Shown here: piece after piece, positions 532-35,414 of the stretch
Numbering within the stretch: the first letter of the stretch is position 1
Layout of the letters: every line of letters begins with the position of its first letter
The notes under the pieces: generated by a model
Seen by the model: only the letters and a program-made list of their open reading frames with translations
Told to the model about the DNA's origin: nothing
Databases searched by the model: none
Program-made: the position numbers and the translations under genes
IMG/VR virus record: IMGVR_UViG_2851933302_000004
Direction: 5' to 3' (one strand)
DNA: 40,715 nt
Source: a virus
Taxonomy: Duplodnaviria; Heunggongvirae; Uroviricota; Caudoviricetes

Positions 532-1071
532 ATGAAGAAAGTTTTTCTTTGCGCCATCTTAGCCTCCTTAAGCTATCCGGCTATCGCCTCATCATTGCAG
601 GATCAACTCTCGGCTGTCGCAGAAGCGGAACAGCAAGGTAAAAATGAAGAGCAAAGGCAGCATGACGAATGGGTCGCGGAGCGCAACAGGGAAATCCAGC
701 AAGAGAAGCAACGTCGCGCAAACGCCCAGGCCGCGGCTAATAAAAGAGCGGCAACGGCAGCAGCGAATAAGAAAGCTCGTCAGGATAAACTGGACGCCGA
801 AGCCACTGCGGACAAAAAACGCGATCAAAGTTATGAAGATGAGCTACGTAGCTTAGAGATTCAGAAACAAAAACTGGCGCTGGCGAAAGAAGAAGCCCGC
901 GTCAAGCGCGAAAACGAATTTATCGATCAGGAACTGAAGCACAAAGCTGCGCAAACCGATGTGGTGCAATCTGAAGCTGACGCAAACAGAAATATGACTG
1001 AAGGCGGTCGCGATCTGATGAAAAGCGTGGGTAAAGCAGAAGAGAATAAATCAGATAGCTGGTTTAACTAA
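532..1071 (+). CDS. Secreted coiled-coil protein, Lys/Glu/Gln/Ala-rich, function unknown
   Basis: ORF 532..1071 with AGGAGG RBS 6 nt upstream; predicted signal peptide MKKVFLCAILASLSYPAIASS; highly charged low-complexity body. Confidence 0.5.
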   Translation: MKKVFLCAILASLSYPAIASSLQDQLSAVAEAEQQGKNEEQRQHDEWVAERNREIQQEKQRRANAQAAANKRAATAAANKKARQDKLDAEATADKKRDQSYEDELRSLEIQKQKLALAKEEARVKRENEFIDQELKHKAAQTDVVQSEADANRNMTEGGRDLMKSVGKAEENKSDSWFN

Positions 1072-1109
1072 ACGATGTTAGTAACTTCAAACCTATAATT
1101 CTTTAGGAT

Positions 1110-1141
1110 AAAAAAACCCTCTGTAGTAACAGAGGGTTTTG
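1110..1141. terminator. Bidirectional rho-independent terminator between the left flank genes and the prophage lysis cassette
   Basis: A-run, stem CCCTCT / AGAGGG with 8-nt loop, followed by TTTTG. Confidence 0.6.
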
Positions 1142-1289
1142 TTCATTCATAGTGCAGGGTCAAATCATTCCCACTCAATTATTTACGACAACCATAACCA
1201 ATTGAGTGATAACATTTTTCCAAATCTCAATTTTTCCCGTACCGTTTTATATACCGTCACCGGAAATCAGTACCATGAAAAATGCCATG

Positions 1290-1772
1290 CTATCTGGTCA
1301 AAGTGTCGTACTGTTTTTCGCAGACTCTTCCGGCTTCGGCTGCCCGGTCAGCATACTCTGCCAGTTGTCTGTTTCTCTCGAGAGATTTGCTGAGCACGTC
1401 GGCAAGCAAAACTCCGGTGTCTGCGGCTGACGACCCAGCGCCGACAATGGCGTTATACTGCCTGAGCTGCTCACGGATGGCAAAGAGTTGTTGCTGCAAC
1501 CGGCCAGCGCTAGCGGCAGCATCAAGAGCATCATTGCGCGCCTGGTCGATCCTCTGCTGAGCTTCACGTTCATTGGTCACTTTCTCCTGTTCGTAGTACT
1601 GACGAACTTTGTCTTCTTCGGCTTTGCTGTCTTCTTCCGCCTGAGCATACCCGGCATCGTACTGGCGACTGCCGTGTATATTCCAGGCAACCACTCCTGA
1701 TATGACCAGAACAGCAAGCACTGCCACGATAAGAAACTGTTTCCAGTATGCTTTTACGAATGCCCAGATCAT
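1290..1772 (-). CDS. Rz-like inner-membrane spanin (i-spanin)
   Basis: 160 aa, N-terminal TM helix then coiled-coil periplasmic domain; last gene of lysis cassette; start overlaps endolysin stop (ATGA); contains embedded lipoprotein ORF in another frame. Confidence 0.75.
1298..1534 (-). CDS. Rz1-like outer-membrane lipoprotein spanin (o-spanin) embedded in Rz in an alternate frame; start uncertain
   Basis: Embedded ORF with [14 protein letters not shown] lipobox and Pro-rich mature region, typical Rz/Rz1 nested architecture. Confidence 0.5.
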   Translation of the reverse strand: MMLLMLPLALAGCSNNSLPSVSSSGSITPLSALGRQPQTPEFCLPTCSANLSRETDNWQSMLTGQPKPEESAKNSTTL

Positions 1773-2398
1773 ACCGCCAGCACCTTACTGGCAGTGATGT
1801 ACCGCGCTCGCCGGTCGTCGATGCCGTTCCGGCCACCATTGATAATCAGAGTTACACGTGCAATATCGCCGGTATACTTCATGCATCCTTTGCTGGCGAA
1901 GAACCACGCCGCGCTACGAGCCGCATATTCGTCCTGCGCCAGCAGTTCAGGGCTCTCCAGCAGGTCAACCTTCAGACCGTTTCCGCAATCACGATAGTTA
2001 TTCAAACCGGTAATCTGGATAAGTCCGCGCCCTCGGTAATTCCAGCCATCACCAGGGGCATTGTTCCCCATGCGTTTGCTGTATACCAGATTTGCGATCG
2101 CGCGCTGGCGCTCAAGTGGCAATGGTGGTTCACCAGCACGGCGCCCCAGTGCATTAGCCTGCCCCTGAGTGAGACGCCCAGCCCGAACGAAGTTAGCCAG
2201 TCCGCTGACACTGTAGTTGAAATTCTCCTGCAACCTGGTGAAGCCCCCAGACTCATGCCCGACTTGAGCAATAAACATTGCCTGATCTTCTGCTTTGCTG
2301 ATACCAAACTCTTTCATCGCAGAAGTTATATGCGAGAACCAGCGTGCGGCCAGTGCCTCGCTGATACCAGCAGCTCGCTGGAATTGTTTAATCTCCAT
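1769..2398 (-). CDS. Endolysin, glycoside hydrolase family 19 (chitinase-like) type
   Basis: ORF 1769..2563 trimmed to internal ATG at 2398 with GAGG RBS; motifs [34 protein letters not shown] resemble GH19 phage endolysins (recalled). Confidence 0.8.
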
Positions 2399-2696
2399 GT
2401 TTAGACCTCGATACTTTAAAAATTTGAACGACGTTACCGCGCGTTTTAATAACCGCAGCCAGCATGACAGCGTTGATAATGACCTCAGATAAATCCACAG
2501 CCATTGGCGTACGTAACCAGATTGCATAGGCGACTCGAACAGGAATACTGGCCGCAGCAACAATCAGGAAATAAGCAAGCCATCCTCCCCACCTTCGATG
2601 TTGAGAGCCGTTACGCCGGAATGTGACAACGCGAATTGCTATGCCAGTGCAAATAACTGCATTAGTGATAAGCAAAAAAAACTCATGCGTTACCAT
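2388..2696 (-). CDS. Small membrane protein, holin or antiholin-like, of lysis cassette
   Basis: 102 aa with 2-3 hydrophobic helices; overlaps both neighbours in the lysis operon. Confidence 0.5.
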
Positions 2697-3087
2697 CGTC
2701 TTTTCTCCCCGGAATTAACTCGCGTGGATTATCGGAACGGTGATAGAGCCATATACCAATACGCACAGCGACAATTGCTGACACGAATGCGCCTGCAGAG
2801 AAAACAATCCCTTTTTCAAAAGAGTCCTGCGTGATGGTAGGGATCAGGCTGGCTATGCCGATAAGAATTGATGCTGCTGGTTTGTAAAAGAGAAGGCCGC
2901 AAAGAAAGCTGAGCATCGACAGGAGCACCCGGCGACGGATGGGGTACTCTACTGCAGAGGTAACAAAAATTACCGCCCCAGCCAAAGCCCCTAAAGCAAC
3001 CTCCGGAGGGACACCTGCAATAACTGCAGCAAGAGAACCAAAACTAAGCAACTGATTTAATTGCTCACTTGTTACTTGAGCAGACAT
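2683..3087 (-). CDS. Holin-like multi-pass membrane protein, first gene of lysis cassette
   Basis: 134 aa, several TM segments, charged C-terminal tail; position immediately upstream of endolysin. Confidence 0.55.
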   Translation of the reverse strand: MSAQVTSEQLNQLLSFGSLAAVIAGVPPEVALGALAGAVIFVTSAVEYPIRRRVLLSMLSFLCGLLFYKPAASILIGIASLIPTITQDSFEKGIVFSAGAFVSAIVAVRIGIWLYHRSDNPRELIPGRKDDGNA

Positions 3088-3368
3088 ACTTTCTCCTGTT
3101 TACTATCTATAAGCCAGTCAATTATTGATGACTAAACCCGCATAGTAAACCATATATGAATCATTATTGTTCCATATCATATATCTCAATAAAAGTACTA
3201 ATGATTTTACAGAACGAGCCAGCAGAGTGGGGGCAGTTGTACAGGAACCATAGACTTAATTTTGTATTTAATAATGCTATGGTGTAATAAACCTGAACAT
3301 GTATTTAAAATACGTACTGATTCATGATAGAATTCAAAGATAACTTTTCACCAACTCCGTTTTTGATA

Positions 3369-3395
3369 CCCGCAATATTTTGCGGGCTTTTTTTT
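3369..3395 (+). terminator. Hairpin plus T8 tract overlapping the tailspike stop codon; efficient only in plus orientation
   Basis: CCCGCAA-TATT-TTGCGGG followed by TTTTTTTT. Confidence 0.4.
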
Positions 3396-6300
3396 AACGT
3401 TCTTCCAGAGACTGAACCCGCTCTTTTATCTTATCCATTTCTCTGCGCTGCCATGCTGCCTCGATATAGAATAAGAGATCAGGTCTGACCCCCCATCTAG
3501 ATCCTGCTGGCGTTATTTCAACGCGCTCAATGATGTCTTCTATTACCATCACTGGATTATCATCCTCATCAACAATGATGCTCCCGTCATTATCAGTCAG
3601 CGGCATTTCCCTTTGGCCAGTAATGACGTCATCATATACTGCGGGATAATCGTCATAGCAAAGAAAGGCATAGCGGCATGTTGTGCTTTCTTCTTCCATG
3701 AGTCCGTGAGAAATAAGAACATCACGAAGTTGCTGCGCGATTACACCATGATGTATCCTCGCCCCTTCTTCCCCCTTTATAGCGACAGCGTTCAGCCATT
3801 TATAAGCGATATACCTGACGTCACCCCAGGCATCCAGCAATGCTTCGTCAGGAGAGACCGGCTCTGTCTTTAATGTTCCGTCACTGGTAACCACAGGATT
3901 GGAGCCAAGATAAACTGTCGAGAACCTGTTTCCCGGACCACCAAGAGCATTTACATTATCAAGATAAGGTTTAACATCTCCGTTCTCAAAAAGATGTTCG
4001 AGTGCGTTATATACCGCGCGACGTGGAGTACTGCTTCCGGAACCATGCAACGTTATCATTGCACCATCTGCTGAAGACGTTGTTTCACCGCCGCTAACGA
4101 TTAATCTCTGAGCGGTAACATCATCAGACGGTACTTTCTTCGCAATAATGGCGTAATTACCCTCAAGTTTGACTTCCGCGCGAACTTGTCCTGATGTACC
4201 TGCATGGACAGTCAGTGACTGGACGGCAACATCATCTGTGAAATCAACGGGTACAGGAACCGTCCTCACGCCTGACGTCGACATAAAAGTAGGAAGCGTT
4301 CTGTTAGGAGTGGCTCCGTAGACAAAATCCCTTGAAACAAATTCTTCCTGTTTAATTTTCACCCTGAAACAATACAAATCAGCCGGGTGACCATCGTGAA
4401 CATAAGGATATTTTCTGTTGTTATCCCCTATGCTCCATGGGTTTAGAAAGTCTTCCCCACCGAAAATGTAGTACAGCCAGTTGTCTTTGATACAAACTGA
4501 ACCAACACCAACCGCAGAGTTAACTATTCCGCCCTGATAAATCTGATCAGTAACATTAACCCACTCTACATTATCCAGACTCCACTCATTGACGTTAACT
4601 CTGGTCATAAATGTTCTTGGATAATTTCCTGCATAACGGTTATCAGGTTCTCCTCCTTCCCACTCACCAAATGCGCGCTCACTGCCAAAAATAATCAGCT
4701 CATCGCCAACTTTGGCAAAAGGAAGGTTTGAGTGATGAACATTATTTGGGAAGCGAAGAGAATTCCATGATGTACCTAAATCAGAGCTTCTGTGCAATGA
4801 ACTACCGGGTTGAGTACTTAATGTCCCCCTGGTCGTCAGATACAGAATGCCATCATAATATTTTACACATGGCTCAGATGCATTCGCCTCATATTCTGCA
4901 GGTATGCGTCTGCGAACAAAGCTACCAGGAGAACCGAAAGCATCAGAGAAATAGAGTATCCCAAGCTCGCGTGGACCAATATCACCATTATGGTAGCCAA
5001 CAGCAAAACTGTTATCGCTAATCGTCGCAAAACTGTGAATCTCAGTAACAGGAGTGCTTCCGTCAACAAAAGAAGGAATAGTTCCAAGACTGGTTTTTCT
5101 CCATGGTGACGAGTGAAATGATGTACCAAAACTCCAGTATCTACCCTCGTTATTCTGATCCACATCCTGGGTATTTTGCGTCGTAACTGTAAAAGTATTT
5201 TTATCAATAACAGTAGTCACCGTCATATTCCCGGTAACACCTGTAACACCAGAGTTTGAGAAGTTGACAAAATCACCAGCAAATAATCCGTGATCAGTAA
5301 TGCGAATATAAGCGACTTGCTGATTTGCTGCTTTCGTTATACCACCATAAACGCGAAGGCTGCGACTCATTGGGCGATCCCACAACTCTGCAACCTGCAG
5401 TTTATTTCCGCTCACGGTCCGCGTCTCAATTACAGCAAAAAGGCGATTTCTGACAACCCCCATACTCATGCAGTGATAGTTAACTGTGGGATAGTTTTCA
5501 TGTAAATCTGTAAGCCATTCCGGCGTTGTCCAGGTCTTCCCGTCATCTCCTGAGCGAACCCATGCAACATGGAGGTTATTTACACCATGGCGGTCTCCAG
5601 CCATAAAAGGCGCATAGATGACATTGTCATATACAAACGTTTTATCCTGCGTCCAGGCGTTGTACCACGGTGTATCTGTAATTTTAAATAACTCTCCCTG
5701 GATAAAATCTTCAGAAGCATAAAAAAGAGGCTGGCCCGGTATTCTCTCAAATAAAAAACGAGCATTTTTAAATCGACTGACATCCGGAAGAGTTGATACT
5801 TTAAAAGTAAGCCCTAATCCGTCAATTTTATAACCTGGAGATGAGGCTTCAAGGCACGCGCTTATTGCAGTGGAATCGTCATTTATACCATCACCAACAG
5901 CTCCAAAATCTTTGGGGCTAATAGCATCACGCATTTTATCCTGGAACGTTCGGTACACAGCCCCAGAACCATACTGAATAAACCAACCAAAACCACCAAC
6001 AACCCCGGAGATTGCAGCATCGACATAATTACGCATTGAGCGATTATTTACAGCGTCCTGCTCAAATGATGGATCTGCAAGGTTAGAAATTTTGTTTTGC
6101 TTTGCATCGTAATATTTTGCAAGCAAAGATGGTTTCATCAATGCACGTCTGAACCACCCAAAACATTGCTGGATCAGCATCGTCAGGTAGTCAAAGGCAT
6201 CTTCATGCACTTCGGGGAAAAATTTTCCCTGATTGCGAAGGTCTGTCTCCTGCACTACATCAAGCACACGATCTATCGTAATTCGCCATCCAGTAGCAAG

Positions 6301-6513
6301 CGGAGACGGAAGAACCACAGAACCGCCACTATAAGTGCCCGCCCCAGTTACCGTATAACCGGTATCCAGAACCAATTCTGTTACGTTTCCGTTCAGGTCA
6401 GACACCTGAACAACCAGGTCTGATTTTCTGAAAACTCGAAAAGTATACGGAAACGATGTCGTAACGCCGTTACCGGTGTATTCGTTGTGGTCAACTTCGG
6501 TTGAGACCGTCAT
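3394..6513 (-). CDS. Tailspike with endo-N-acetylneuraminidase (endosialidase, K1 polysialic acid depolymerase) domain and C-terminal intramolecular chaperone (autoproteolytic) domain
   Basis: 1039 aa; central region (ERIPGQPLFYASEDF..ITDTPWYNAW..NYHCMSMGV..SGDDGKTW) closely parallels recalled endosialidase catalytic domains of K1 phages; C-terminal S-D-G-x-L-K segment typical of S74 chaperone domains; distinct N-terminal particle-binding domain. Confidence 0.85.
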   Translation of the reverse strand: MTVSTEVDHNEYTGNGVTTSFPYTFRVFRKSDLVVQVSDLNGNVTELVLDTGYTVTGAGTYSGGSVVLPSPLATGWRITIDRVLDVVQETDLRNQGKFFPEVHEDAFDYLTMLIQQCFGWFRRALMKPSLLAKYYDAKQNKISNLADPSFEQDAVNNRSMRNYVDAAISGVVGGFGWFIQYGSGAVYRTFQDKMRDAISPKDFGAVGDGINDDSTAISACLEASSPGYKIDGLGLTFKVSTLPDVSRFKNARFLFERIPGQPLFYASEDFIQGELFKITDTPWYNAWTQDKTFVYDNVIYAPFMAGDRHGVNNLHVAWVRSGDDGKTWTTPEWLTDLHENYPTVNYHCMSMGVVRNRLFAVIETRTVSGNKLQVAELWDRPMSRSLRVYGGITKAANQQVAYIRITDHGLFAGDFVNFSNSGVTGVTGNMTVTTVIDKNTFTVTTQNTQDVDQNNEGRYWSFGTSFHSSPWRKTSLGTIPSFVDGSTPVTEIHSFATISDNSFAVGYHNGDIGPRELGILYFSDAFGSPGSFVRRRIPAEYEANASEPCVKYYDGILYLTTRGTLSTQPGSSLHRSSDLGTSWNSLRFPNNVHHSNLPFAKVGDELIIFGSERAFGEWEGGEPDNRYAGNYPRTFMTRVNVNEWSLDNVEWVNVTDQIYQGGIVNSAVGVGSVCIKDNWLYYIFGGEDFLNPWSIGDNNRKYPYVHDGHPADLYCFRVKIKQEEFVSRDFVYGATPNRTLPTFMSTSGVRTVPVPVDFTDDVAVQSLTVHAGTSGQVRAEVKLEGNYAIIAKKVPSDDVTAQRLIVSGGETTSSADGAMITLHGSGSSTPRRAVYNALEHLFENGDVKPYLDNVNALGGPGNRFSTVYLGSNPVVTSDGTLKTEPVSPDEALLDAWGDVRYIAYKWLNAVAIKGEEGARIHHGVIAQQLRDVLISHGLMEEESTTCRYAFLCYDDYPAVYDDVITGQREMPLTDNDGSIIVDEDDNPVMVIEDIIERVEITPAGSRWGVRPDLLFYIEAAWQRREMDKIKERVQSLEER

Positions 6514-6617
6514 GTTAAATCTCCAGATAGTCGCAGCACCCGTTGCGCCGCATATCTGGTTATTCTATTACCTGGAAAACCACATATGGATAGAAAGGCT
6601 GTAAATACGAATAGATA

Positions 6618-6632
6618 TTACCTTTCAGGTAA
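6618..6632. promoter_or_regulatory. Operator-like palindrome TTACC-N5-GGTAA (copy 1) in the divergent region between tailspike and the LexA-box gene
   Basis: ATTACCTTTCAGGTAAT perfect inverted repeat; same motif recurs at 11 other positions. Confidence 0.5.
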
Positions 6633-6669
6633 TTTGCAAAACGTGCTGGATAGCAAACAAATTATTTGC

Positions 6670-6689
6670 TACTGTATAAATATACAGTT
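6670..6689 (+). promoter_or_regulatory. LexA (SOS) box 20 bp upstream of a small antirepressor-like gene
   Basis: TACTGTATAAATATACAGTT, CTGT-N8-ACAG with AT-rich spacer, matches about 18 of 20 positions of the E. coli LexA consensus. Confidence 0.7.
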
Positions 6690-6708
6690 ATTGCATGGAG
6701 AAGATAAG

Positions 6709-6966
6709 ATGCAGCAGTATCACTATCCACTGGAAGACGGATTTACCGAAAGGATTCACACGCCGGGAGGCGTCAGGTCACTGGTGGAGGGATCGCACTT
6801 GATGAAATTACTCCGGGATCTCGATAAGGATGGATTTAATGTCGATGGCCCACTTGCCGAACTGACTGCACTGATTAACTACGTCACCAGCTCACAGATG
6901 TCTATGCAGGATCTGCAAACACATCTCGACTATTGTGCCGAACAATTACGAAAACAAACCCGGTAA
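6709..6966 (+). CDS. Small SOS-regulated protein, candidate antirepressor; shares a domain with the C-terminus of the Bro-N protein at 8352..9047
   Basis: ORF 6586..6966 trimmed to ATG 6709 (GGAGAAG RBS); LexA box immediately upstream; about 50 percent identity to the C-terminal 75 aa of the 231-aa Bro-N protein (LMKLLRDLDKDGFNVDGPLAELT vs LMNLLNQLQEDGHDVSGAAAELT). Confidence 0.5.
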   Translation: MQQYHYPLEDGFTERIHTPGGVRSLVEGSHLMKLLRDLDKDGFNVDGPLAELTALINYVTSSQMSMQDLQTHLDYCAEQLRKQTR

Positions 6967-6973
6967 ATTTAAA

Positions 6974-6989
6974 GGCCGCAAGAGCGGCC
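6974..6989. terminator. Hairpin between convergent genes (GGCCGC-AAGA-GCGGCC), likely terminator for the minus-strand two-gene module
   Basis: Perfect 6-bp stem between stop codons at 6966 and 6991; T-rich on minus-strand side. Confidence 0.4.
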
Positions 6990-6990
6990 A

Positions 6991-7497
6991 TTAACAGTCG
7001 TAAAATTCCGGGTCCCACAAACTTGCATCGCGCGGCATGGATTCTAAATTTTTCAGCCGCAAAATTCTGTCACACTCGACAAGAAGTTTTTGTTTTTGTT
7101 CGTCAATTTCTACTTTTTTGTGTGCTGGCTCATCCCAGTAATCCAGAAGAAACGCATGTCGCTCAGACGTTACAAGATAAATCACATACACATCACTGGT
7201 TGGTATTTTTTTATGCTTGTTGGTGGTCTTGTCTTTCTTCCCGGATGCCCAGTTTTTCCAGCATTGTTCCGTACCGCTCTCACCAAACTTGTCAGTATAG
7301 TTTCCGATGTTTACGTGAACGTGGCGTATGTGATATTCCAGCATCTCTTTCGGTGGATCCCGAAACAGAGTGTCCTTTCCGAAATCCTTATGATGACCGT
7401 AGCGCCAGTGATCTATGAACGCGTTTTTGATAGGTATTAGCTCAGGGTCCTTCCCAAAAATTCCAGGGTGAACCAACCCCTGGAATTTATTCAGCAT
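6991..7497 (-). CDS. YafO-like toxin domain protein (candidate type II toxin or abortive-infection effector), AT-rich cargo
   Basis: ORF trimmed to ATG 7497; motifs FGKDTLFRD and HIRHVHVNIGN resemble the YafO family core (recalled); overlaps upstream gene by 11 bp. Confidence 0.4.
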   Translation of the reverse strand: MLNKFQGLVHPGIFGKDPELIPIKNAFIDHWRYGHHKDFGKDTLFRDPPKEMLEYHIRHVHVNIGNYTDKFGESGTEQCWKNWASGKKDKTTNKHKKIPTSDVYVIYLVTSERHAFLLDYWDEPAHKKVEIDEQKQKLLVECDRILRLKNLESMPRDASLWDPEFYDC

Positions 7498-7906
7498 CGT
7501 CGTAGAGCTCCTGAGCCATATCTTCGGCAGTGCGTGCAAACATCCTGCGCGAGATTGCATGAGATTTCTCGACGGACATCTTTGGGACCTCATGCATAAC
7601 ATTTTTGGGAGTTGTGTAATAGCCTATTACAATTTTCACACCTGACTTATGATTAATATCAGCATAATATACTTCTTGTTCAGACGTTTCACGACGAACA
7701 TAATCTGCCAGTTTTCCACATTTAAATTCCCCTCCCTGATGTTTTAAAATCTCCTCAACTGCACTATTTTCAGTGAAATACCGAATAAGAAATTTCTGTC
7801 CAGACTCTTCAGCATGAGGTATAACAGTATTATTGGAAGCCCGAACAATGGCCTTACTCAATATTTCATGGTCTTTATTTTTTTCTGATTTCCTCAAATG
7901 CTGCAT
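7487..7906 (-). CDS. Hypothetical protein with acidic C-terminal tail, upstream partner of the YafO-like gene (candidate antitoxin)
   Basis: ORF trimmed to ATG 7906; AT-rich; stop overlaps start of downstream gene. Confidence 0.4.
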   Translation of the reverse strand: MQHLRKSEKNKDHEILSKAIVRASNNTVIPHAEESGQKFLIRYFTENSAVEEILKHQGGEFKCGKLADYVRRETSEQEVYYADINHKSGVKIVIGYYTTPKNVMHEVPKMSVEKSHAISRRMFARTAEDMAQELYDDAE

Positions 7907-8067
7907 TACTGTAGCTCTCTTCGTGTTCACGGGCACCCCCAACTACCTCTAGGGTAAACATTCTATCGAAAGTATACGCATACTGGCAAAAAAATAGGCA
8001 GGTATTTTCTGAAATGGGATCAATCAAACCACATAGGGTTGAAATAACGTGAGTTATGCATTTATTA

Positions 8068-8082
8068 TTACCTTTGCGGTAA
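8068..8082. promoter_or_regulatory. Operator-like palindrome TTACC-N5-GGTAA (copy 2) about 270 bp upstream of the Bro-N gene
   Basis: TTACCTTTGCGGTAA; preceded by AACCACATAGG motif at 8027..8037. Confidence 0.45.
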
Positions 8083-8174
8083 ATTTACATCGCACTCCTC
8101 TTGTGCCATAGTAATCGGGCACTGGAAAAATCCAGTGCCGGGATTGGCGTCCCGGATTACTAAAAGGCGCATTC

Positions 8175-8196
8175 ACCGCGCAAGCGGTTTTTTTAT
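8175..8196 (+). terminator. Intrinsic terminator inside the 5-prime leader of the Bro-N gene (attenuator or end of a small RNA)
   Basis: ACCGC-GCAA-GCGGT hairpin followed by TTTTTTT. Confidence 0.5.
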
Positions 8197-8351
8197 GCGT
8201 ATAGCACGGCCACATTCGTATTATGGTGGGCTGTGTGGGGGCACCGAAAGGTGCGCCGGGTCCTTTTAGCCGGTTACGCCAACCCTGCACAGTTCACCAC
8301 CAACCGATTGGCGTCGGTAGTGGTGATTAACCAGACTAAAAGGTAACCACT

Positions 8352-9047
8352 ATGACAGCTACAAAAAGCACGTCCATTTTTTCTTTCGAATCCCAAGCCG
8401 ATATACGGGTAATCGTCATTAATGGTGAGCCATGGTTTATCGCTTCAGATGTTTGTCGGGCTATAGGCATAGCAAATCATCGAGATGCTGTTCGAAAACT
8501 TGATGATGATGAGAAGGGCGTCGCTTCAACCGACACCCCTGGCGGTGAGCAAGAATCGATCATCATCTCCGAGTCAGGCCTCTACACACTGATCCTCCGC
8601 TGCCGCGACGCAGTGACACCAGGCACTATCCCCTACCGCTTTCGTAAATGGGTTACAGGTGAGGTTCTTCCTCAGATCCGCCGCACCGGAAGTTACATTA
8701 AAAACTCGCTCCCGCAGGAAGAACGCATAAAGATGGTTGCCGACCAGGTAGCCAACGCCACAGCATCAGCAGTGATGCAGGCAATGAAGATAGAGAACAA
8801 AACCTACAGTGCCCCACTGAAGCCCGGCTACCGCAGCCTGATTCATTCGCCGTCTGGTGTTCTCGGCCTGACGGAGAACTCACTGCTGATGAATCTGCTG
8901 AACCAGTTACAGGAAGACGGGCACGACGTATCGGGCGCGGCGGCGGAGCTGACCACCATGTTCTGCTACATCGTCGGTGTGAGCAAGTGCCTGCGTGATA
9001 TCCAGACGCACGCGGAGTACATCAACGACAAGGCTGGGTTCTTCTGA
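8352..9047 (+). CDS. Bro-N domain protein with C-terminal antirepressor-like domain
   Basis: N-terminus FSFESQADIRVIVINGEPWFIASDVCRAIG is a classic Bro-N signature; C-terminus paralogous to the 85-aa SOS-regulated protein. Confidence 0.7.
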   Translation: MTATKSTSIFSFESQADIRVIVINGEPWFIASDVCRAIGIANHRDAVRKLDDDEKGVASTDTPGGEQESIIISESGLYTLILRCRDAVTPGTIPYRFRKWVTGEVLPQIRRTGSYIKNSLPQEERIKMVADQVANATASAVMQAMKIENKTYSAPLKPGYRSLIHSPSGVLGLTENSLLMNLLNQLQEDGHDVSGAAAELTTMFCYIVGVSKCLRDIQTHAEYINDKAGFF

Positions 9048-9113
9048 CGGGCGGCGGCACATGGATGTGCCTTTAAAATAATCATTGGCGATGTGATGTA
9101 GATTCGCGTAATA

Positions 9114-9128
9114 TTACCTTACGGGTAA
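9114..9128. promoter_or_regulatory. Operator-like palindrome TTACC-N5-GGTAA (copy 3) 60 bp upstream of the 210-aa gene
   Basis: TTACCTTACGGGTAA. Confidence 0.45.
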
Positions 9129-9187
9129 GAAAGCGTTTTTAATCTTCCCTTCAAAACGCGTCCTGTAGCCAAACATGGGAGGACGAA

Positions 9188-9820
9188 ATGAAAACAAATA
9201 CAACAAGAAAAGCGATGCCATACATTATCCCAGAAGCAGATTTCGACAGAAAACTGAACATGTCTGAGAAGAACACTAGTCACACCGAAAGCTACTTAGC
9301 GAAAGGTGTGGTTGATTTCGTTCTTCCGGGATTCACAACACCTTATGGTTATCGCCTTGTAAAATCTTGTAATGGCGATCATTACAGAATGATTACTACC
9401 AGCGATACTCCAGAAACGGTGTATGCGGTTAAGTTAATCTTTCGGGAAGATATCGTCGAAGCTAAAAGAACATGTACGCAGATCATGGTATGGCGTACGC
9501 CTAATGTTATTCATGACCGTGCTGTTCATGGTTTGCCTCAGATTTTTTTTCAGTTCTTCCTAGAGCAATATGCGATCGTTGTATCTGATGAGCAACAAAC
9601 AATCGATGGGAGAAGATTCTGGGAAAGAATGATTTCTTGGGCTATAAACACCCCGGGATATAATGTATACGTTTCAGATGGCTCTGAAGAAGATAGACCT
9701 CTTAGCTTCATGACATCATGGGATGATTTCTATAGCCAGTGGGCTGATTTCTGTTGGGGCAGTGATAAAGATGTGCATACCCACAGACTACTGGTTATAA
9801 GCAAAGATAAACTGCATTAA
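9188..9820 (+). CDS. Hypothetical cargo protein, 210 aa, function unknown
   Basis: ORF with GGGAGG RBS; operator copy upstream and strong terminator downstream; no recognisable family. Confidence 0.5.
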   Translation: MKTNTTRKAMPYIIPEADFDRKLNMSEKNTSHTESYLAKGVVDFVLPGFTTPYGYRLVKSCNGDHYRMITTSDTPETVYAVKLIFREDIVEAKRTCTQIMVWRTPNVIHDRAVHGLPQIFFQFFLEQYAIVVSDEQQTIDGRRFWERMISWAINTPGYNVYVSDGSEEDRPLSFMTSWDDFYSQWADFCWGSDKDVHTHRLLVISKDKLH

Positions 9821-9825
9821 TAGAA

Positions 9826-9918: not shown

Positions 9919-10080
9919 ATGAAAAAAGCATTTGCTGCACTGTTCGTTTTGTTGTCTCTGGTAGCTTCAACTCAGGCCTTTGCCGGTCGTTGTCAGCACG
10001 ACAGCGATACTGCTGCTGACGGCTCCCGCTGCGGTGGGCGTTCTGCGGATTCCCGCCCGGGTGGCGGTGGCATTCGTTAA
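9919..10080 (+). CDS. Small secreted Cys/Gly-rich peptide (about 53 aa), hypothetical
   Basis: ORF 9847..10080 trimmed to internal ATG giving signal peptide MKKAFAALFVLLSLVASTQAFA; weak RBS. Confidence 0.3.
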   Translation: MKKAFAALFVLLSLVASTQAFAGRCQHDSDTAADGSRCGGRSADSRPGGGGIR

Positions 10081-10086
10081 AAACAA

Positions 10087-10102
10087 GGCCGCGAAAGCGG
10101 CC
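10087..10102. terminator. Bidirectional terminator hairpin between convergent genes
   Basis: GGCCGC-GAAA-GCGGCC with T-rich flanks on both strands. Confidence 0.5.
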
Positions 10103-10109
10103 TGTTTGA

Positions 10110-10961
10110 TCACTGTGCAGTTTTCGCTGATCGATTTTCAGCTCTAAATTCAAGAACCGTTTCAATATTTCTTTCCTTCAGCATATCAATAACATTTTTA
10201 TTCATTTGACTATCACTGGTTAATAACTGGTAAACGTTGCTTCTCTCTTTATCAGAGTTTTCTTTAACAGCTGCTTTGCATGCCAAATGCTTATTGAAAT
10301 TTTCTACATCGCTAGTACAGGAATTTACGGCTGCTGATGAAATATCAGACGCTGAAGAAACACCATCATCCAAACGTTTTATAGCATTTTCTATACATGA
10401 GTTAAGGGAATAAACGACAACTGAGCGATACCCTTCAGACGCACACCATTCTAAATTTCTTGAAGGATCGAGTGGTTTTACTTCGCTGGATTGAATTAAC
10501 TTGTCAAAAACTGACTTATATTCAATCTGTTTTTTATCTATAGCCCATACTTCAGTAGCTGATTTATAATTCCCCGTATGCCTATTAACATCAAATCCAT
10601 GTTTTATAAGCAAATCTGCCCATGAAAGATTTATTGATTCATTGTTATGAGGCCATTTTCCTGTCAGAACCGCCCCCATAGACCCCATATATCCGCCATA
10701 TGATGGTATAGCACCATGGCTCAGTAACTTCTCAGCAACCACAGGGCAATTAATTACATAAGAGGCGTAAAGCCCATTCCATAAAGCCCCTCTATAGTAA
10801 TCGCCACGATTAGGTTCTTTTAAGTCGATAGCCTTTGATAATTGTTCACACGTTTTGCATGCATCAAAGTTATCCTTATTGCATTGCAATGAACTGGCAG
10901 CTGTAGGATTTACAGAGACTATTGAAAGCACTATGCCAAAAAACAAATTTATTTTTTTCAT
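10110..10961 (-). CDS. AT-rich secreted protein, 283 aa, possibly ankyrin-like repeats; moron at the distal end of the virion operon
   Basis: Signal peptide MKKINLFFGIVLSIVSVNPTAASS; codon composition visibly more AT-rich than neighbours; LLSHGA / LLIKHGFDVN segments are ankyrin-like. Confidence 0.55.
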   Translation of the reverse strand: MKKINLFFGIVLSIVSVNPTAASSLQCNKDNFDACKTCEQLSKAIDLKEPNRGDYYRGALWNGLYASYVINCPVVAEKLLSHGAIPSYGGYMGSMGAVLTGKWPHNNESINLSWADLLIKHGFDVNRHTGNYKSATEVWAIDKKQIEYKSVFDKLIQSSEVKPLDPSRNLEWCASEGYRSVVVYSLNSCIENAIKRLDDGVSSASDISSAAVNSCTSDVENFNKHLACKAAVKENSDKERSNVYQLLTSDSQMNKNVIDMLKERNIETVLEFRAENRSAKTAQ

Positions 10962-10962
10962 C

Positions 10963-13900
10963 CTATTTCATCTGCTCTTCAACTTTATTTAGTAACGGTG
11001 ATATTGCCCACAGGTTCTGAAAAGGTAGCATTTTACGGACCGCGTGGGTTTGCTGGCTGTCAAATTCTCCGTTAAGTACACCATTCGCAACCGTCGCGGC
11101 ATCACCGCCAAGATCAAAGGTAGGACCAAGTAAAGCACCAATAGCATTACGACTCTGAAACCTTGATACCGGAGGCGCACCAAACATCGCGCCAAGACCA
11201 AACCTACCGCCGCTTATGTTCTCAACGGTATTCAGCGGCTCAGAGAGCCAGCCAAGCATTCCGCCCCGGTCGATCCCCTCTTTCACAAGGTTATTCCAGC
11301 TGTAGTCAATATCGCGACCGCTTAACTTCTGTTTCATCATATAGACCATTGAGCCAAGCGCAATCGTGCCAAGCGCACCAAGATAGAATGCAGCATCGCC
11401 CTGCTGGATACCAGATACCAGCACCCTGTTATGCTGTGCGAAGATAAACGTTTTGAACTGCGTGATCATCTTCCAGCCTTCTTTACTAAAAAACAGCGGT
11501 GTATCACCTACGCCAGGCGTTACAATCACTGAGTCTACATCTTTCAGCACTGCAGACTGGAAAATCTCTCTAGCGAAACGGTCATCCCACAGATGACTAT
11601 GCCCGGTTAACAGCCCGTCCATATCCTCTCCGTGCTTCCCGAATTGCTCCCCGATTCGGCGCAGAACATCTTCATTGATGCCGACCTGTGCCATCTTCCG
11701 CATTTCACTTTTGGAGAGCGTGCCACCAGCAGAAACTTGGCGAGCCGCGTCAAGTATCCTCGACTGCACTATCATCCCGGACCATGATTTAAGTGCGCTG
11801 TTCCACTGATTCATCAGCGTCCAGTTACCGAATTTCTGCGTCATCCAGTTCAGGCCTCGCTCAGCGGCGCTTCTCCGGCTATATGGGTCAGTAAGATCCG
11901 CTATAGCCTTTGTACGCGTAGACAGGACATAATCAAGCCCAACGGCCATTTCTCGCAAATCCCTGGTTGCAATTTTCACTGAGTCCATATTTTTAAGCAT
12001 GCTTACCATTGGTCCGAGAGATTTTCTCAGGCCATGCTGCATCATCGGTCGCATCAGATCAGTTGCAGCGGAGACAGTCATTCCACCAAGCAAACGGAGG
12101 AAGTTAATATTCCTAGCAACTCGCCCGGCACGAACAAAGAAACTGCGTGGATCTTGAGGTGCACCGTAAGTACCAAGCAGTCGATCACGCATAGCCGTAA
12201 TATCCCTAATATCAGCCTCCCGTTGCTTCTCAAGAACTGCACGTCGTTTAGGCGTTTTAGCCTCTTTTATTAGCCGGGTATATTCCTCACTAACCTGACG
12301 GATTTGCTCCCCCATATCTTTACGGCCAAACTGCGCAGTCAGCTCAATTTCTGGTGCCACCTGCCGGAGATAACTTTCCATGATGTAGTTAACATCTGAT
12401 TCAAGAAAATCTTCTATACGCTCATCAGGAATAAGCAGCGTTCTGCTTTTAGTGAAACCAGCCCGACCAACGAGTCTCTCTGGGATAATATCGGCTGGTA
12501 CAAGCCCGGAAGGTGCACCTATTATTTTATTCACGATCTCGTCAGCAGCGTCCTCTGCTTCCTCTCGGGATAGAGGCTCCATCTGCTTCAGTGCTCGTTC
12601 GCGGCTTGCATTCAGCCTTGTGGTTGAATTTGCCCGTTTTTGCAGTCGGCGAAGCTCAGAACGATATTTCCGTGGATTATCCAGCAACTCCATATGGCGC
12701 TGATAGACAGGAAGCTCACTCTTTGCCTGCGCTATATCATCAAGGCGTGTTTTAAGGTCAGAGCTTTCTTTCATCATTCTTGCCTGAAGTTTTTCTGATG
12801 AAGTCTCGGCCAACTCTTTTTCTATTCTTGTAAGACGCGCCTGTGTGTCAGTCTCCTGAGATATAAGCTTATTTCGTTTATCCAGTTCTTCCATGAGTAG
12901 AATTTTTTTACCAGACCATTTCTCCGCTTCAGCGATTTCACTAGCGAGAGCATCAGCGCGCGGTGCCGATTCCTCTGCAGTTTTTAGCAATGAATTTATC
13001 CTTTCAATTCGCTGACCTGCCTTGTCAGCACCTTTGGCACTAATCCCTTGTATCCAGTTGGCAATTCGCCCTCTGAATTCAGTGCGGTCGGAAAGTATCT
13101 TATCGAACTTATAAATGCGGGGAAGATAACTTTTCGCCGTCACGACATCGATATCCTCAGGAAGGATCCCCAGTTCCTGCATACGGGCTTTTGTGGTCTC
13201 GAAAATGGGGCGGATTCTGGCAGCTGCTTGTGAAACCTCAGGAATATCACTCTGATCACCACGGCGCATAGCCATGCCAACAGCTTCATTGAAATCAATA
13301 AAGTTCATCCTCTTCACGCCGCGGGCGCTAACAGATTTGCTGTACTGCTGGTAAGCATCACGAGTGGCTTCCATCTGCTTATAAAGCATGGCGTCGTATT
13401 GCTTAATCTTAGTCTCGACTGCCGTAAACGTAGCCAACCCCTCATCATTTTTGGCGAAGAAATAGTTATTTTCGGCAAGCTGCTGGTTAATCTGACGGGA
13501 GACAAGAGATGGTGATTGCGCCAAGCGGCCAGCAGGAGTGACACTCAACGTTTTGTTAGCAAGTCCAAGTCCAGCGAGCTGTTCCTGATCGAGTGTGGTA
13601 TTGAAAACCTGAGCTGCACCAATGCTTTGAGGAGAATCCATACCTCGCAAATGATTACCTACTGAGTTAACCACTGCCTCGCGCGCGCCAGGTCCAGCAA
13701 GTAGCTGTGCACCAGCACCAAGGATCCCACCAACGAGAGCATCAACAACAACGTTCGATACGCTCTCCATCGGTGAGCGAGCTTCCTGAGTGGCCTGTAA
13801 TGCGGCCTCTGAAGCAACACTGCCAGCAGCATTCGCCAGGGCAAAACGCCCGGCTGTTTCTGCAATACGACCGCCACGAACGACAGCGCCGAACGGAATA

Positions 13901-14352
13901 AACATAGAAATCGCATTGAATGGATCTGCTAATCTCATTGCTACAGAAGAGACTGTACCAGCAAATCCCAAGCCTGAATTGTATTCCATGTCAGCTCTCT
14001 GCTGATCGATTCGATGTTTAATTGCCATTGTTTCTTCAGGCGAACCGGAGTTGATAAACGAATCTGCAAAATCTTCATAGCCTTTAATATCTGCTGCATC
14101 GTTATCAAATGGGTTATATCCTTCAACCCTGTCAAACTGACTGAAAGGAGCACTGGCAATAAAGCTACCCAGCGTGTTATCTATACGAAATGCTGCTTGT
14201 CTAGACCTTTGAACGCGTTGATCACTGGTAAATGGGTTCACAGCAGAAAGCAAAGAAGGTGTTTCCATATAGAAATTACTGTCATCAGGTGCTGCTATTT
14301 GCTGAATATCCTCGCCAAGCAACTCTTTAGGATCCTGTTCATATATCGGCAT
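10963..14352 (-). CDS. Large internal virion / DNA-ejection protein (positional analogue of T7 gp16)
   Basis: 1129 aa, coiled-coil rich, last large gene of the structural block; assignment by size and gene order only. Confidence 0.5.
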   Translation of the reverse strand: MPIYEQDPKELLGEDIQQIAAPDDSNFYMETPSLLSAVNPFTSDQRVQRSRQAAFRIDNTLGSFIASAPFSQFDRVEGYNPFDNDAADIKGYEDFADSFINSGSPEETMAIKHRIDQQRADMEYNSGLGFAGTVSSVAMRLADPFNAISMFIPFGAVVRGGRIAETAGRFALANAAGSVASEAALQATQEARSPMESVSNVVVDALVGGILGAGAQLLAGPGAREAVVNSVGNHLRGMDSPQSIGAAQVFNTTLDQEQLAGLGLANKTLSVTPAGRLAQSPSLVSRQINQQLAENNYFFAKNDEGLATFTAVETKIKQYDAMLYKQMEATRDAYQQYSKSVSARGVKRMNFIDFNEAVGMAMRRGDQSDIPEVSQAAARIRPIFETTKARMQELGILPEDIDVVTAKSYLPRIYKFDKILSDRTEFRGRIANWIQGISAKGADKAGQRIERINSLLKTAEESAPRADALASEIAEAEKWSGKKILLMEELDKRNKLISQETDTQARLTRIEKELAETSSEKLQARMMKESSDLKTRLDDIAQAKSELPVYQRHMELLDNPRKYRSELRRLQKRANSTTRLNASRERALKQMEPLSREEAEDAADEIVNKIIGAPSGLVPADIIPERLVGRAGFTKSRTLLIPDERIEDFLESDVNYIMESYLRQVAPEIELTAQFGRKDMGEQIRQVSEEYTRLIKEAKTPKRRAVLEKQREADIRDITAMRDRLLGTYGAPQDPRSFFVRAGRVARNINFLRLLGGMTVSAATDLMRPMMQHGLRKSLGPMVSMLKNMDSVKIATRDLREMAVGLDYVLSTRTKAIADLTDPYSRRSAAERGLNWMTQKFGNWTLMNQWNSALKSWSGMIVQSRILDAARQVSAGGTLSKSEMRKMAQVGINEDVLRRIGEQFGKHGEDMDGLLTGHSHLWDDRFAREIFQSAVLKDVDSVIVTPGVGDTPLFFSKEGWKMITQFKTFIFAQHNRVLVSGIQQGDAAFYLGALGTIALGSMVYMMKQKLSGRDIDYSWNNLVKEGIDRGGMLGWLSEPLNTVENISGGRFGLGAMFGAPPVSRFQSRNAIGALLGPTFDLGGDAATVANGVLNGEFDSQQTHAVRKMLPFQNLWAISPLLNKVEEQMK

Positions 14353-17099: not shown

Positions 17100-17677
17100 C
17101 AGTAACCTCCTATTTTGAATCGGGAGTCAGAATTCATAAAACCTGAGTTAGATAACATTGGCGTCCCACCACTAGATGTACTTCCTTTAGAGAACGGACT
17201 CCACGTTCCGCCGCCCAACTTATATGCACCGTATGCTTTTAGTGGTGCTGTTAACAAAGTGCTGGTCATCGATGATTTAGCAGCCGACTGAGCAGCAGCC
17301 CCCTGTGCCTGAGCATTCATTCCCTGAACCTGATACCCATATGCCTCACGCTGAGCATTATTCACTGTCGTTAACGCATCAAGAGTGCCGAACTGAGCAT
17401 TATCCGCAAAAACGTCAAGAGCTGTTCCGCTACTTAATTCCGCACCGGTAGCCCCCATAGTGGCCGCCGCAGTGCCTGAGCGTTGACGCATTTCACGACG
17501 ACGCTGATCTGCTTCAATATTCCCACGATTGATTGAATCCTGTGCCTGAGCTTCAGCAATTTCAGCATTCCGATCAGCTATGGCTGACTGGTATTTTGCC
17601 TGCTTGCTCTGGCTGTACATTGACGCGGCTGTGGATGCCACTGTGACGGCAACCAAAGCGATGGCTGGGTTACACAT
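17099..17677 (-). CDS. Internal virion protein (positional analogue of T7 gp14)
   Basis: 192 aa, Ala/Gln/Gly-rich; gene order. Confidence 0.4.
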   Translation of the reverse strand: MCNPAIALVAVTVASTAASMYSQSKQAKYQSAIADRNAEIAEAQAQDSINRGNIEADQRRREMRQRSGTAAATMGATGAELSSGTALDVFADNAQFGTLDALTTVNNAQREAYGYQVQGMNAQAQGAAAQSAAKSSMTSTLLTAPLKAYGAYKLGGGTWSPFSKGSTSSGGTPMLSNSGFMNSDSRFKIGGY

Positions 17678-26745: not shown

Positions 26746-26822
26746 GTGGCATTAGCTCAGTTGGACAGAGCAACCGCCTTCTAAGCGGTTGGTCGCAGGT
26801 TCGAATCCTGCATGCCACGCCA
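26746..26822 (+). tRNA. tRNA-Arg (anticodon UCU), phage-encoded
   Basis: Cloverleaf folded by hand: 7-bp acceptor stem GTGGCAT/ATGCCAC, D-arm GCTC/GAGC, anticodon stem ACCGC/GCGGT with loop CTTCTAA, T-arm GCAGG-TTCGAAT-CCTGC, encoded CCA; resembles host argU with compensatory stem changes. Confidence 0.9.
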
Positions 26823-34829: not shown

Positions 34830-35414
34830 ATGAAAAGTATCCAGGACGTCCGCAGGCAAAATCTCAACGACTTGATCGACCGTGAATTCAATGGTGTTCA
34901 GACGCGGATGGCAGAAAAACTTGGAACTCAGGCAAATCTGGTAAACCGCTGGGCTCTTGGCAAGAAGGTTATCGGCGACCAGGTTGCGCGAAAAATTGAA
35001 GCTGCCGCCAATAAACCCCGTAACTGGCTTGATATCGATCGCTCGCTTTCTCAGGAAGGTTTTCAGCCTGTCGGCCCAAGCGACATTGGCCAGCTGGCGG
35101 CTCACAACCTGGAACGCTGGATGAGCGAAAGCCGCGACCTTTCAACACAGGGAAAACTTCACCGCGCATCCGGCGTCGCCCAGGTGACAATCAGCCGCCT
35201 GTTAAACAATGAGGTCAGCGTTTCCATTTCCACCCTGGAGAATGTTGCATCCGCATTCGGGCGTCACGGCTATGAATTACTGATTCACCCGCACGACCCT
35301 GCGACCATCAACTATGACCGCTCGCGCTACGCATTGTTACCCGAAACCGAGAAAGCAAAGATCGAAAGTTACATTGAATTTGTCATCAACCAGAACGAAA
35401 AAAACAAACAATAA
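34830..35414 (+). CDS. Prophage repressor with two HTH-like segments and no recognisable LexA-type autocleavage domain
   Basis: 194 aa; divergent from cro-like gene across operator cluster; no Ala-Gly or Ser-Lys peptidase segment seen. Confidence 0.6.
   Translation: MKSIQDVRRQNLNDLIDREFNGVQTRMAEKLGTQANLVNRWALGKKVIGDQVARKIEAAANKPRNWLDIDRSLSQEGFQPVGPSDIGQLAAHNLERWMSESRDLSTQGKLHRASGVAQVTISRLLNNEVSVSISTLENVASAFGRHGYELLIHPHDPATINYDRSRYALLPETEKAKIESYIEFVINQNEKNKQ

Follow-up and report, generated by a model that had tools for sequence, protein, structure and literature searches.

A predicted K1 endosialidase tailspike gene in an epsilon15-like Uetakevirus prophage of Escherichia coli APEC O18

The product of the gene at positions 3394-6513 of the DNA analysed here (40,715 nt, hereafter the window) is very probably the tailspike with which a temperate epsilon15/phiV10-like podovirus (Uetakevirus), integrated at the guaA 3' end of a K1-encapsulated ExPEC strain, destroys its receptor. 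Domains, residue conservation, homology breakpoints, prophage context and the K1 locus were observed; enzymatic activity, processing and transcription are predictions. The finding is correct but already known, because the same architecture was published in 2022 for the tailspike of the isolated phage vB_EcoP_ZX5, a temperate Uetakevirus that uses guaA as integration site and for which an O87:H52:K1 strain supports both plaque formation and lysogeny. Its ORF7 was described with an N-terminal tail-fibre domain, an endosialidase and a chaperone domain (Li et al. 2022, PMC9782041); the paper gave no enzyme assay, mosaic origin or regulatory sites for this protein. Coordinates of all features are collected in Table 1.

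Table 1. Predicted features of the tailspike gene and its surroundings (window positions; aa, residues of the tailspike precursor)
Feature	Position	Strand	Basis or remark
att core ATTGAGTGGGAATGATT, prophage end next to yfgI	1163..1179	-	att sequence from PMC9782041
Lysis cassette	1290..3087	-	two holin-like genes, GH19 endolysin, Rz-like DUF2514; downstream of tailspike
Endosialidase tailspike precursor gene	3394..6513	-	single 1039-codon ORF (1039 aa plus stop); translation, Pfam and PDB matches
C-terminal intramolecular chaperone domain	3397..3885	-	aa 877-1039; Peptidase_S74 (PF13884) aa 877-937, E 1.8e-10; 3gw6 match E 4e-62; 54% identity to endoNF
Tract 99.5% identical to CUS-3 siaK1	3423..5815	-	gene nt 699-3091; aa 234-1030
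Stalk/tailspike domain	3886..4350	-	aa 722-876; End_tail_spike (PF12219), E 8e-78; 56% identity to endoNF
Six-bladed catalytic beta-propeller	4351..5700	-	aa 272-721; End_beta_propel (PF12217), full profile length, E 1.4e-233; 70% identity to endoNF
Beta-barrel inserted in propeller	5119-5367	-	aa 383-465; End_beta_barrel (PF12195), E 3e-46
Junction segment	5815..5916	-	aa ~200-233; divergent start of endosialidase N-terminal extension; GAVGDGxxDD motif
N-terminal virion-anchor module, Uetakevirus (epsilon15/phiV10) type	5917..6513	-	aa 1-199
Divergent intergenic region	6514..6708	.	195 bp; palindrome and LexA-type box
TTACC-N5-GGTAA palindrome TTACCTTTCAGGTAA	6618-6632		exact copy
LexA-type box TACTGTATAAATATACAGTT	6670-6689
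85-aa ORF, antirepressor C-terminal domain-like	6709..6966	+	divergent from tailspike gene
Two-gene insert (147 aa, 168 aa) absent from ZX5	6991..7930	-	terminator-like hairpin 6974-6989
Anti-immunity module	8119..9047	+	isrK-like sRNA, C4 antisense RNA, BRO-N antirepressor
isrK-like sRNA	8119-8194	+	Rfam match above gathering score
C4 antisense RNA	8219-8304	+	Rfam match above gathering score
BRO-N antirepressor	8352-9047	+	Pfam Bro-N E 2e-21; PHROG Ant families

The open reading frame is real and, judged by its translation and its database matches, specifies a GH58 endosialidase tailspike precursor. Its product is 100% identical to APEC O18 protein WP_021515102.1, whose annotation reads 'endosialidase catalytic beta-propeller domain-containing protein'. 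Each of the four endosialidase domains in Pfam was present, as was the Peptidase_S74 chaperone domain, with End_N_terminal at aa 205-271 (E 6e-32) and the remainder as tabulated, and the Pfam and PDB searches recovered the endosialidase-type six-bladed propeller, inserted beta-barrel and triple-beta-helix/prism stalk by which the GH58 structure is recognised. Among known endosialidase structures, crystal chains 1v0e/3gvl of endoNF match aa 205-876 (E=0), and 3gw6, the structure of the endoNF chaperone domain, matches aa 757-1038 (E 2e-93). The sequence-only reading had named the central domain a K1-phage endosialidase and the C-terminal one a self-cleaving chaperone; the former is borne out by these matches and by intact catalytic residues, the latter by the Peptidase_S74 and 3gw6 matches and conserved S877/K882, with self-cleavage as a prediction. 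By homology, the protein would depolymerise alpha-2,8-polysialic acid (polySia).

From the N-terminal extension through to the chaperone domain, the tailspike has its domains in the order seen in endoNF (gp17) of K1F, a lytic phage whereas that of the tailspike is temperate, and the alignment of the two contains a 7-aa insertion at aa 481-487. Residues E547, R562 and R613 of the tailspike align with E581, R596 and R647 of endoNF, which we take to be its catalytic residues; their roles were reportedly worked out by Stummeyer et al. in 2005. The endoNF R647A mutant chain 3gvj was among the PDB matches, and residue mapping found endoNF E581, R596, R647, H350, S911, K916, R837 and S848 all kept. 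In the stalk, R803 and S814 are conserved and M819 replaces endoNF Q853, presumably part of the stalk polySia-binding site; CUS-3 carries the same residue there. S877 and K882 align with the S911/K916 Ser-Lys dyad of the Peptidase S74 type, and the tailspike has Ser opposite the Ala of 3gw6 at endoNF position 911. Autocleavage is predicted between T876 and S877, since the boundary between the mature peptides gp17* and CTD falls at aa 910/911 in the K1F record.

By alignment with phiV10 and phiv142-3, and with epsilon15 by way of the phiV10 record, the N-terminal anchor appears to be of epsilon15/phiV10 type. Over gene nt 1-596, blastn gave 97% identity with the tail fibre gene of phiv142-3, and aa 1-165 shared ~69% aa identity with the phiV10 tail fibre, the N-terminus of which is recorded as similar to epsilon15 p20. 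The same N-terminal ~165-200 aa are common to the tail fibres of the Uetakeviruses phiV10, phiv142-3, TL-2011b and SPN9TCW, whose distal domains, unlike that of the endosialidase tailspike, are aimed at O antigens or other capsules. Matches to many PHROG tail-fibre/tailspike families were confined to the anchor part, and the N-terminus of Dpo31/Dpo36 in the PDB matched it at E 3e-34. An earlier statement that the anchor differs from those of lytic K1 phages held for K1F, the one aligned directly: the T7 gp17-type N-terminus of K1F is unrelated to it (24% in a forced global alignment), and no lytic K1 phage was among the N-terminal matches listed. A T7 gp17-type tail fibre N-terminal domain was stated for ZX5 ORF7 (PMC9782041); in the tailspike, Phage_T7_tail matched only in part (aa 135-161, E 0.018) and below threshold (15.2 bits against a 25.2-bit cutoff), and the N-terminus is therefore called epsilon15-type.

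Behind this anchor the gene continues as a CUS-3-like catalytic, stalk and chaperone region, making it a mosaic. CUS-3, also a temperate K1 phage, has near-identical catalytic, stalk and chaperone regions in SiaK1, the record of which reads 'endo-alpha-sialidase activity, Evidence IDA, PMID 16689790'; the SiaK1 N-terminus is of the P22 gp9 head-binding type, whereas that of the tailspike is the epsilon15-type anchor. Across aa 234-1025 the two proteins differ at 5 positions (A266V, G826R, T866I, A891T and I991M, window residue first; 99.4% aa identity), and the last 9-10 aa also differ. The junction segment had no nucleotide match to phiv142-3 or CUS-3 (blastn breakpoints at nt 596 and nt 699); the join falls within the conserved GAxGDGxxDD stretch with which the endosialidase N-terminal extension begins. 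In CUS-3 the neuO acyltransferase lies directly downstream of siaK1, and in phiV10 an O-acetyltransferase (oac) lies downstream of the tail fibre; neither has a counterpart at that position in the window, where the 306 bp between the tailspike stop codon and the holin gene hold no ORF that could be a capsule- or receptor-modifying gene of the neuO or oac kind.

APEC O18 also carries CUS-3 (P22-like), with the acyltransferase, at tRNA-Arg (argW). CUS-3 and the epsilon15-like prophage occur together in the same ExPEC chromosomes, the argW and guaA elements lying ~166-174 kb apart. The two endosialidase genes of one chromosome showed patchy allele sharing, with interior alleles exchanged between the paralogues, a pattern that suggests gene conversion. 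We put at about even the chance that repeated intragenomic gene conversion homogenises the endosialidase genes of these two unrelated prophages; such conversion would also account for the abrupt ends of the homology at gene nt 699 and nt 3091, and would leave two different types of virion with a single, jointly evolving receptor-binding module. A literature search for an epsilon15-type K1 prophage in ST95/ExPEC, or for exchange with CUS-3, returned only the ZX5 paper.

At 100% identity, E. coli APEC O18 matches the window along its full 40,715 bases; the window contains a Uetakevirus (epsilon15/phiV10-like) prophage between yfgI and guaA. Genus-type gene order, nucleotide similarity, an integrase adjoining guaA, a repressor and the att core at guaA were found; a second copy of the core lies ~191 bp past the window end at the guaA 3' end of APEC O18, and the genes around the phiV10 tail fibre follow the same order. 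ZX5 (MW722083) belongs to the same genus and shares the integration site (guaA 3' end) and att core, with eight blocks at 97-99.7% identity to the window. Window 1163-6966, from the lysis genes to the 85-aa ORF, matched ZX5 at 99.66%, and ZX5 ORF7, a 99.8%-identical gene, likewise specifies 1039 aa, with differences from the tailspike at 5 of them. The window differs from ZX5 in a 1.1-kb two-gene insert (6967-8067), in 9073-9823 (the 210-aa ORF region), which has no match in ZX5, in an MT-A70 methyltransferase frameshifted by a 1-nt deletion in an A run, and in the ejection-protein block 9980-17672, the only large block to differ, which has a match at 98.9% identity in EC.W1-9, a deposited phage genome.

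The sequence-only reading had also proposed a temperate phage and a K1-type host. The integrase, repressor and att cores, with the lysogeny shown for ZX5, agree with the first point. For the second, the host capsule locus was examined: next to pheV, APEC O18 has a K1 locus with kpsFEDUCS, alpha-2,8-polysialyltransferase, neuC/neuB and kpsT/M-type ABC transporter genes, as well as kdsB, an acetyltransferase gene and a neuA-like gene annotated as frameshifted. With this group 2 kps cluster and neu region, the host is of K1 type. Among 5426 complete E. coli genomes, the full-length tailspike gene was present in 72 and neuS in 329, so that roughly one K1 genome in five may have, as a second endosialidase prophage in addition to CUS-3, one of epsilon15 type.

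The tailspike gene had been described as separated from the other virion genes by a cargo island, and as having its own intergenic region with an operator copy. It does lie apart, 3.6 kb and six ORFs of mixed orientation from the last virion gene (10110-10961), but the island is, by gene content, mostly a genus-conserved anti-immunity region with the same layout in phiV10. Within 6514-9072, only 6967-8067 is missing from ZX5. The 85-aa ORF, annotated in APEC O18, ZX5 and phiV10 (where its counterpart p24 is recorded as similar to epsilon15 p19), matched phrog_450 (E 9e-48), a family likewise hit by the C-terminal part of the BRO-N Ant, and the anti-repressor family phrog_1760 (E 4.5e-7). A RefSeq label, 'YafO family toxin', for the second insert gene (6991-7497) was unsupported by Pfam (E<=1), NCBIfam and PADLOC.

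The intergenic region and a palindrome copy were likewise present, but they are not specific to the endosialidase, because both belong to a backbone conserved across Uetakeviruses and shared with the divergent gene, which has a LexA-type box. The region is ~98% conserved in ZX5, phiv142-3 and phiV10, phages with quite different receptor-binding domains. TTACC-N5-GGTAA has 14 copies in the window, where 0.58 would be expected, one of them (8068-8082) abutting a promoter-like site at 8039-8068, and we infer that the motif is the operator of the prophage repressor (34830-35414). Scanning of 6514-6708 found no sigma70-like promoter for the tailspike above threshold on either strand, and inspection by hand turned up no convincing candidate. 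Terminator-like hairpins were found at 10086-10103 and 6974-6989.

By homology to endoNF, the 1039-aa precursor would trimerise with the aid of its C-terminal chaperone domain, which would then cut itself off between T876 and S877 through the S877/K882 dyad. The mature 876-aa trimer would join an epsilon15-type tail through the ~200-aa N-terminal anchor, and the beta-propeller (E547, R562, R613) would cleave alpha-2,8-polysialic acid and so let the virion tunnel through the K1 capsule. It is unlikely that the prophage is defective and makes no virions, with the tailspike gene an intact-looking relic without current function in the strain. Three genes of the APEC O18 prophage are listed as damaged in RefSeq: the MT-A70 methyltransferase and a hypothetical gene by frameshifts (the former confirmed against ZX5), and an Ea22-like gene by truncation. 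The copy may therefore have decayed in part; a frameshift in a homopolymer run can, however, also arise as a sequencing error. The damaged genes are accessory ones, whereas integrase, repressor, replication, terminase, portal, capsid, ejection, tailspike and lysis ORFs are intact. Both att cores are in place, ZX5, a viable phage, has a tailspike only 5 aa different, and the sole large block unlike ZX5 has its near-identical counterpart in phage EC.W1-9.

Two further readings accept a working tailspike and alter its role. A preference for something other than plain K1 polySia (O-acetylated polySia or the alternating alpha-2,8/2,9 K92 polymer), with a host range unlike that of CUS-3, is very improbable: the host does carry CUS-3 with a polySia O-acetyltransferase, and 5 aa separate the tailspike from SiaK1 and one presumed stalk-site residue from endoNF, but the 99.4% aa identity to SiaK1 spans propeller, barrel and stalk, every catalytic residue examined is conserved, ZX5 grows on a K1 strain, and the exchange of interior alleles between the paralogues disfavours functional divergence. 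Hardly credible is expression from an own promoter in the lysogen, with the protein acting on the host capsule (in its turnover or in blocking other K1 phages) beyond its virion role. The two hairpins would insulate the gene from upstream minus-strand transcription and the region upstream of it is conserved; against this, the protein lacks a signal peptide and begins with a virion anchor, no promoter was detected in the upstream scan, and the upstream palindrome is operator-like, of the type at other lytic promoters. In ZX5, repressor overexpression cut transcription of the holin and endolysin genes downstream of the tailspike by 99.97-99.99% (PMC9782041).

The preferred reading remains that of a virion tailspike directed at the K1 capsule. 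Enzyme family, temperate lifestyle and exact architecture had all been published or annotated, and the state of knowledge is unchanged in these respects. K1 E. coli are a cause of meningitis in newborns and of avian colibacillosis; phages with endosialidases, and the enzymes themselves, find use in K1 diagnosis and as experimental therapeutics. Where K1 strains carry a second endosialidase prophage, of epsilon15 type, this would bear on the prediction of host range in phage therapy and on prophage-mediated superinfection effects.

The tailspike gene is a single ORF (ORF list and translation) whose product was correctly read from the sequence alone as a K1 endosialidase tailspike; it looks functional and belongs to an epsilon15-like prophage. 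Pfam domains and matches to structures of endoNF, gp17 of the lytic phage K1F, bear out both the enzyme and its C-terminal chaperone domain; the strand, unstated in that reading, is minus. In a search of solved structures, endoNF chains 1v0e/3gvl matched aa 205–876 (E=0) and the chaperone-domain structure 3gw6 matched aa 757–1038. Residues were mapped by alignment to full-length K1F gp17 from the K1F record: E547, R562 and R613 correspond to endoNF catalytic residues E581, R596 and R647, H309 to H350, and S877 and K882 to processing residues S911 and K916. Structure 3gw6 has Ala at the position aligned with S877, presumably the S911A construct. Since the K1F record places the boundary between mature protein and C-terminal domain (CTD) at aa 910/911, cleavage is predicted at T876/S877, which would leave a mature spike of 876 aa and free a domain of 163 aa. 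The propeller shares 70% identity with endoNF, the stalk 56% and the CTD 54%; the 24% over the N-terminal 204 aa is alignment noise.

Features of the window discussed in the text
Feature	Position	Strand	Remark
att core, ATTGAGTGGGAATGATT	1163-1179		second copy ~191 bp past window end
AT-rich non-coding gap, 306 bp	3088-3393		between tailspike stop codon and holin gene
Hairpin	3369-3386		T run after it on plus strand only
Tailspike gene	3394-6513	-	1039 codons
End_N_terminal	aa 205-271		Pfam
End_beta_propel	aa 272-721		Pfam, E 1.4e-233
End_beta_barrel, inserted	aa 383-465		Pfam
End_tail_spike	aa 722-876		Pfam
Peptidase_S74	aa 877-937		Pfam
TTACC-N5-GGTAA, start positions	6618, 7943, 8068, 9114, 26409, 29555, 29573, 32367, 32429, 34375, 34712, 34760, 35472, 35534
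Palindrome copy in 195-bp region	6618-6632
LexA-type box, TACTGTATAAATATACAGTT	6670-6689		same 195-bp region
85-aa ORF	6709-6966	+	related to antirepressor C-terminal domains
Terminator-like hairpin	6974-6989	-
Two-gene insert	6991-7930	-	absent from ZX5
isrK-like sRNA (isrK Hfq-binding RNA)	8119-8194	+	Rfam match above gathering score
C4 antisense RNA	8219-8304	+	Rfam match above gathering score
BRO-N antirepressor	8352-9047	+	directly downstream of both RNAs
210-aa ORF	9188-9820	+
53-aa ORF	after 210-aa ORF		annotated hypothetical
Virion block with ejection proteins	9980-17672		unlike ZX5
Terminator-like hairpin	10086-10103	-
tRNA-Arg (anticodon TCT)	26746-26822	+	between terminase and portal regions
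Repressor	34830-35414		two HTH regions, without S24 peptidase domain
MT-A70 adenine methyltransferase	~38609-39270	+	frameshifted pseudogene

The gene is a mosaic. Nucleotides 1–596, counted from the start codon, share 97% identity with the Uetakevirus phiv142-3 tail fibre gene, the distal part of which is unrelated. Over its N-terminal ~165 aa the protein is ~69% identical to the phiV10 tail fibre, and the same segment is found in numerous podovirus tail proteins whose distal domains vary. A T7-type N-terminus was considered, and the Pfam Phage_T7_tail threshold was not reached. Nucleotides 699–3091 are 99.5% identical to siaK1, the endosialidase gene of the P22-like K1 prophage CUS-3, with only five amino acid differences over aa 234–1025; the CUS-3 record annotates endo-alpha-sialidase activity of its enzyme with direct-assay evidence. 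The ~100 nt between the two blocks (aa ~200–233) correspond, in divergent form, to the conserved GAxGDGxxDD motif at the start of the endosialidase N-terminal extension, and the final 29 nt are also unique.

For the shared tract (2393 nt, window 3423–5815), twelve copies were compared, six of the epsilon15 type and six of the CUS-3 type, with both types present in five genomes. The tract contains 18 variable sites, and type-diagnostic alleles are confined to its two edges. The interior of the CUS-3 copies in APEC O18 and strain E15 bears epsilon15-type alleles, the ST95-32 epsilon15-type copy bears CUS-3-type alleles at three sites, and a private SNP of that copy (nt 1686) recurs only in the CUS-3 copy of the same genome. 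This patchy sharing suggests that the paralogues have undergone gene conversion; few copies were sampled, however, and assembly polishing across repeats that are 99.5% identical could produce the same picture.

The whole window matches the chromosome of E. coli APEC O18 (NZ_CP006830.1, 1633925–1674639) at 100% identity, starting inside host genes yfgH and yfgI and ending at the start codon of the prophage integrase adjoining guaA. The att core is that published for ZX5, phiV10 and epsilon15 (PMC9782041). Matching gene order and eight blocks of 97–99.7% nucleotide identity tie the prophage to ZX5 (Escherichia phage vB_EcoP_ZX5), genus Uetakevirus; one large virion block differs and is 98.9% identical to phage EC.W1-9. 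Compared with ZX5, the methyltransferase gene has lost 1 nt from an A run, and in the early region RefSeq also marks an Ea22-like gene as truncated and a further gene as frameshifted. The tRNA-Arg gene is inside the prophage and runs opposite to the virion genes. Where the window has its non-coding gap beside the tailspike gene, phiV10 carries the O-acetyltransferase gene oac and CUS-3 carries neuO.

A K1 host had been predicted, and this is confirmed by the group 2 capsule cluster with a neu region (KpsF, KpsE, kdsB, alpha-2,8-polysialyltransferase, neuC, neuB and ABC transporter genes) adjoining pheV in APEC O18, the genome identical to the window. APEC O18 also carries CUS-3 at tRNA-Arg, with an acyltransferase adjoining the CUS-3 tailspike. 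The neuA-like cytidylyltransferase gene of the cluster (12151–13408 of the K1 locus, L018) is annotated as frameshifted, either through sequencing error or in an acapsular variant; in the latter case APEC O18 would resist its own K1 phages. The full-length tailspike gene was found in 72 of 5426 complete E. coli genomes, IHE3034 and APEC O1 among them, and the polysialyltransferase gene in 329.

A "cargo island" had been proposed to separate the tailspike from the other virion genes. The separation (3.6 kb to the last virion gene) stands; because phiV10 has the antirepressor, 85-aa ORF and tail fibre in the same layout, most of the island is a genus-conserved anti-immunity module, comparable to immI of P1/P7 and P22, and not cargo. 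The isrK-like and C4 RNAs preceding the BRO-N gene resemble the P1/P7 immI antisense control module, here in an epsilon15-like phage. RefSeq names the 168-aa product of the two-gene insert a YafO-family toxin, and no YafO-type match was obtained with Pfam, NCBIfam or PADLOC; a CUS-3 gene in the same genome bears the same label, with no nucleotide similarity detected.

The palindrome TTACC-N5-GGTAA has 14 matches (10 exact) against 0.58 expected in the window, all 14 intergenic on the ORF map; ZX5 also has 14, most at corresponding positions. The repressor gene lies between two pairs, and two copies abut -10 elements of good promoter-like sites (~7960–8068), a distribution that fits a candidate set of Uetakevirus repressor operators across the genome. 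An operator copy had been placed in the tailspike's own intergenic region. The palindrome is real, and the 195-bp region around it is shared with the divergent 85-aa ORF: its conservation in ZX5, phiv142-3 and phiV10 is ~98%, irrespective of the receptor-binding domain that each phage carries, and it contains a perfect CTGT-N8-ACAG 19 bp upstream of that ORF, in a box agreeing with the LexA consensus at 18 of 20 positions. The region may thus chiefly serve this putatively SOS-controlled small antirepressor-like gene. With a repressor lacking S24, this arrangement suggests SOS induction via a LexA-controlled antirepressor, which would be like that of the Gifsy phages and phage 186. A promoter scan of the upstream intergenic region identified no tailspike promoter, and the two minus-strand terminator-like hairpins would block virion-operon read-through into the tailspike gene unless antitermination occurs.

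Temperate K1 phages with an endosialidase have a long-standing precedent in CUS-3, and in RefSeq the APEC O18 protein is already labelled as containing an endosialidase domain. ZX5 was isolated by Li et al. 2022 (PMC9782041) with an O87:H52:K1 strain as host; they showed lysogeny and guaA integration and described its ORF7 as a tail-fibre domain at the N-terminus followed by an endosialidase and an endosialidase chaperone domain. ORF7 and the window tailspike differ at 5 of 1039 residues. The endosialidase tailspike finding is therefore correct, yet already in the literature and annotation. As a small correction to PMC9782041, where the N-terminus is called T7-like, it is better described as an epsilon15/phiV10-type anchor. 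Modest leads lie in the regulatory layout and in a possible concerted evolution with CUS-3.
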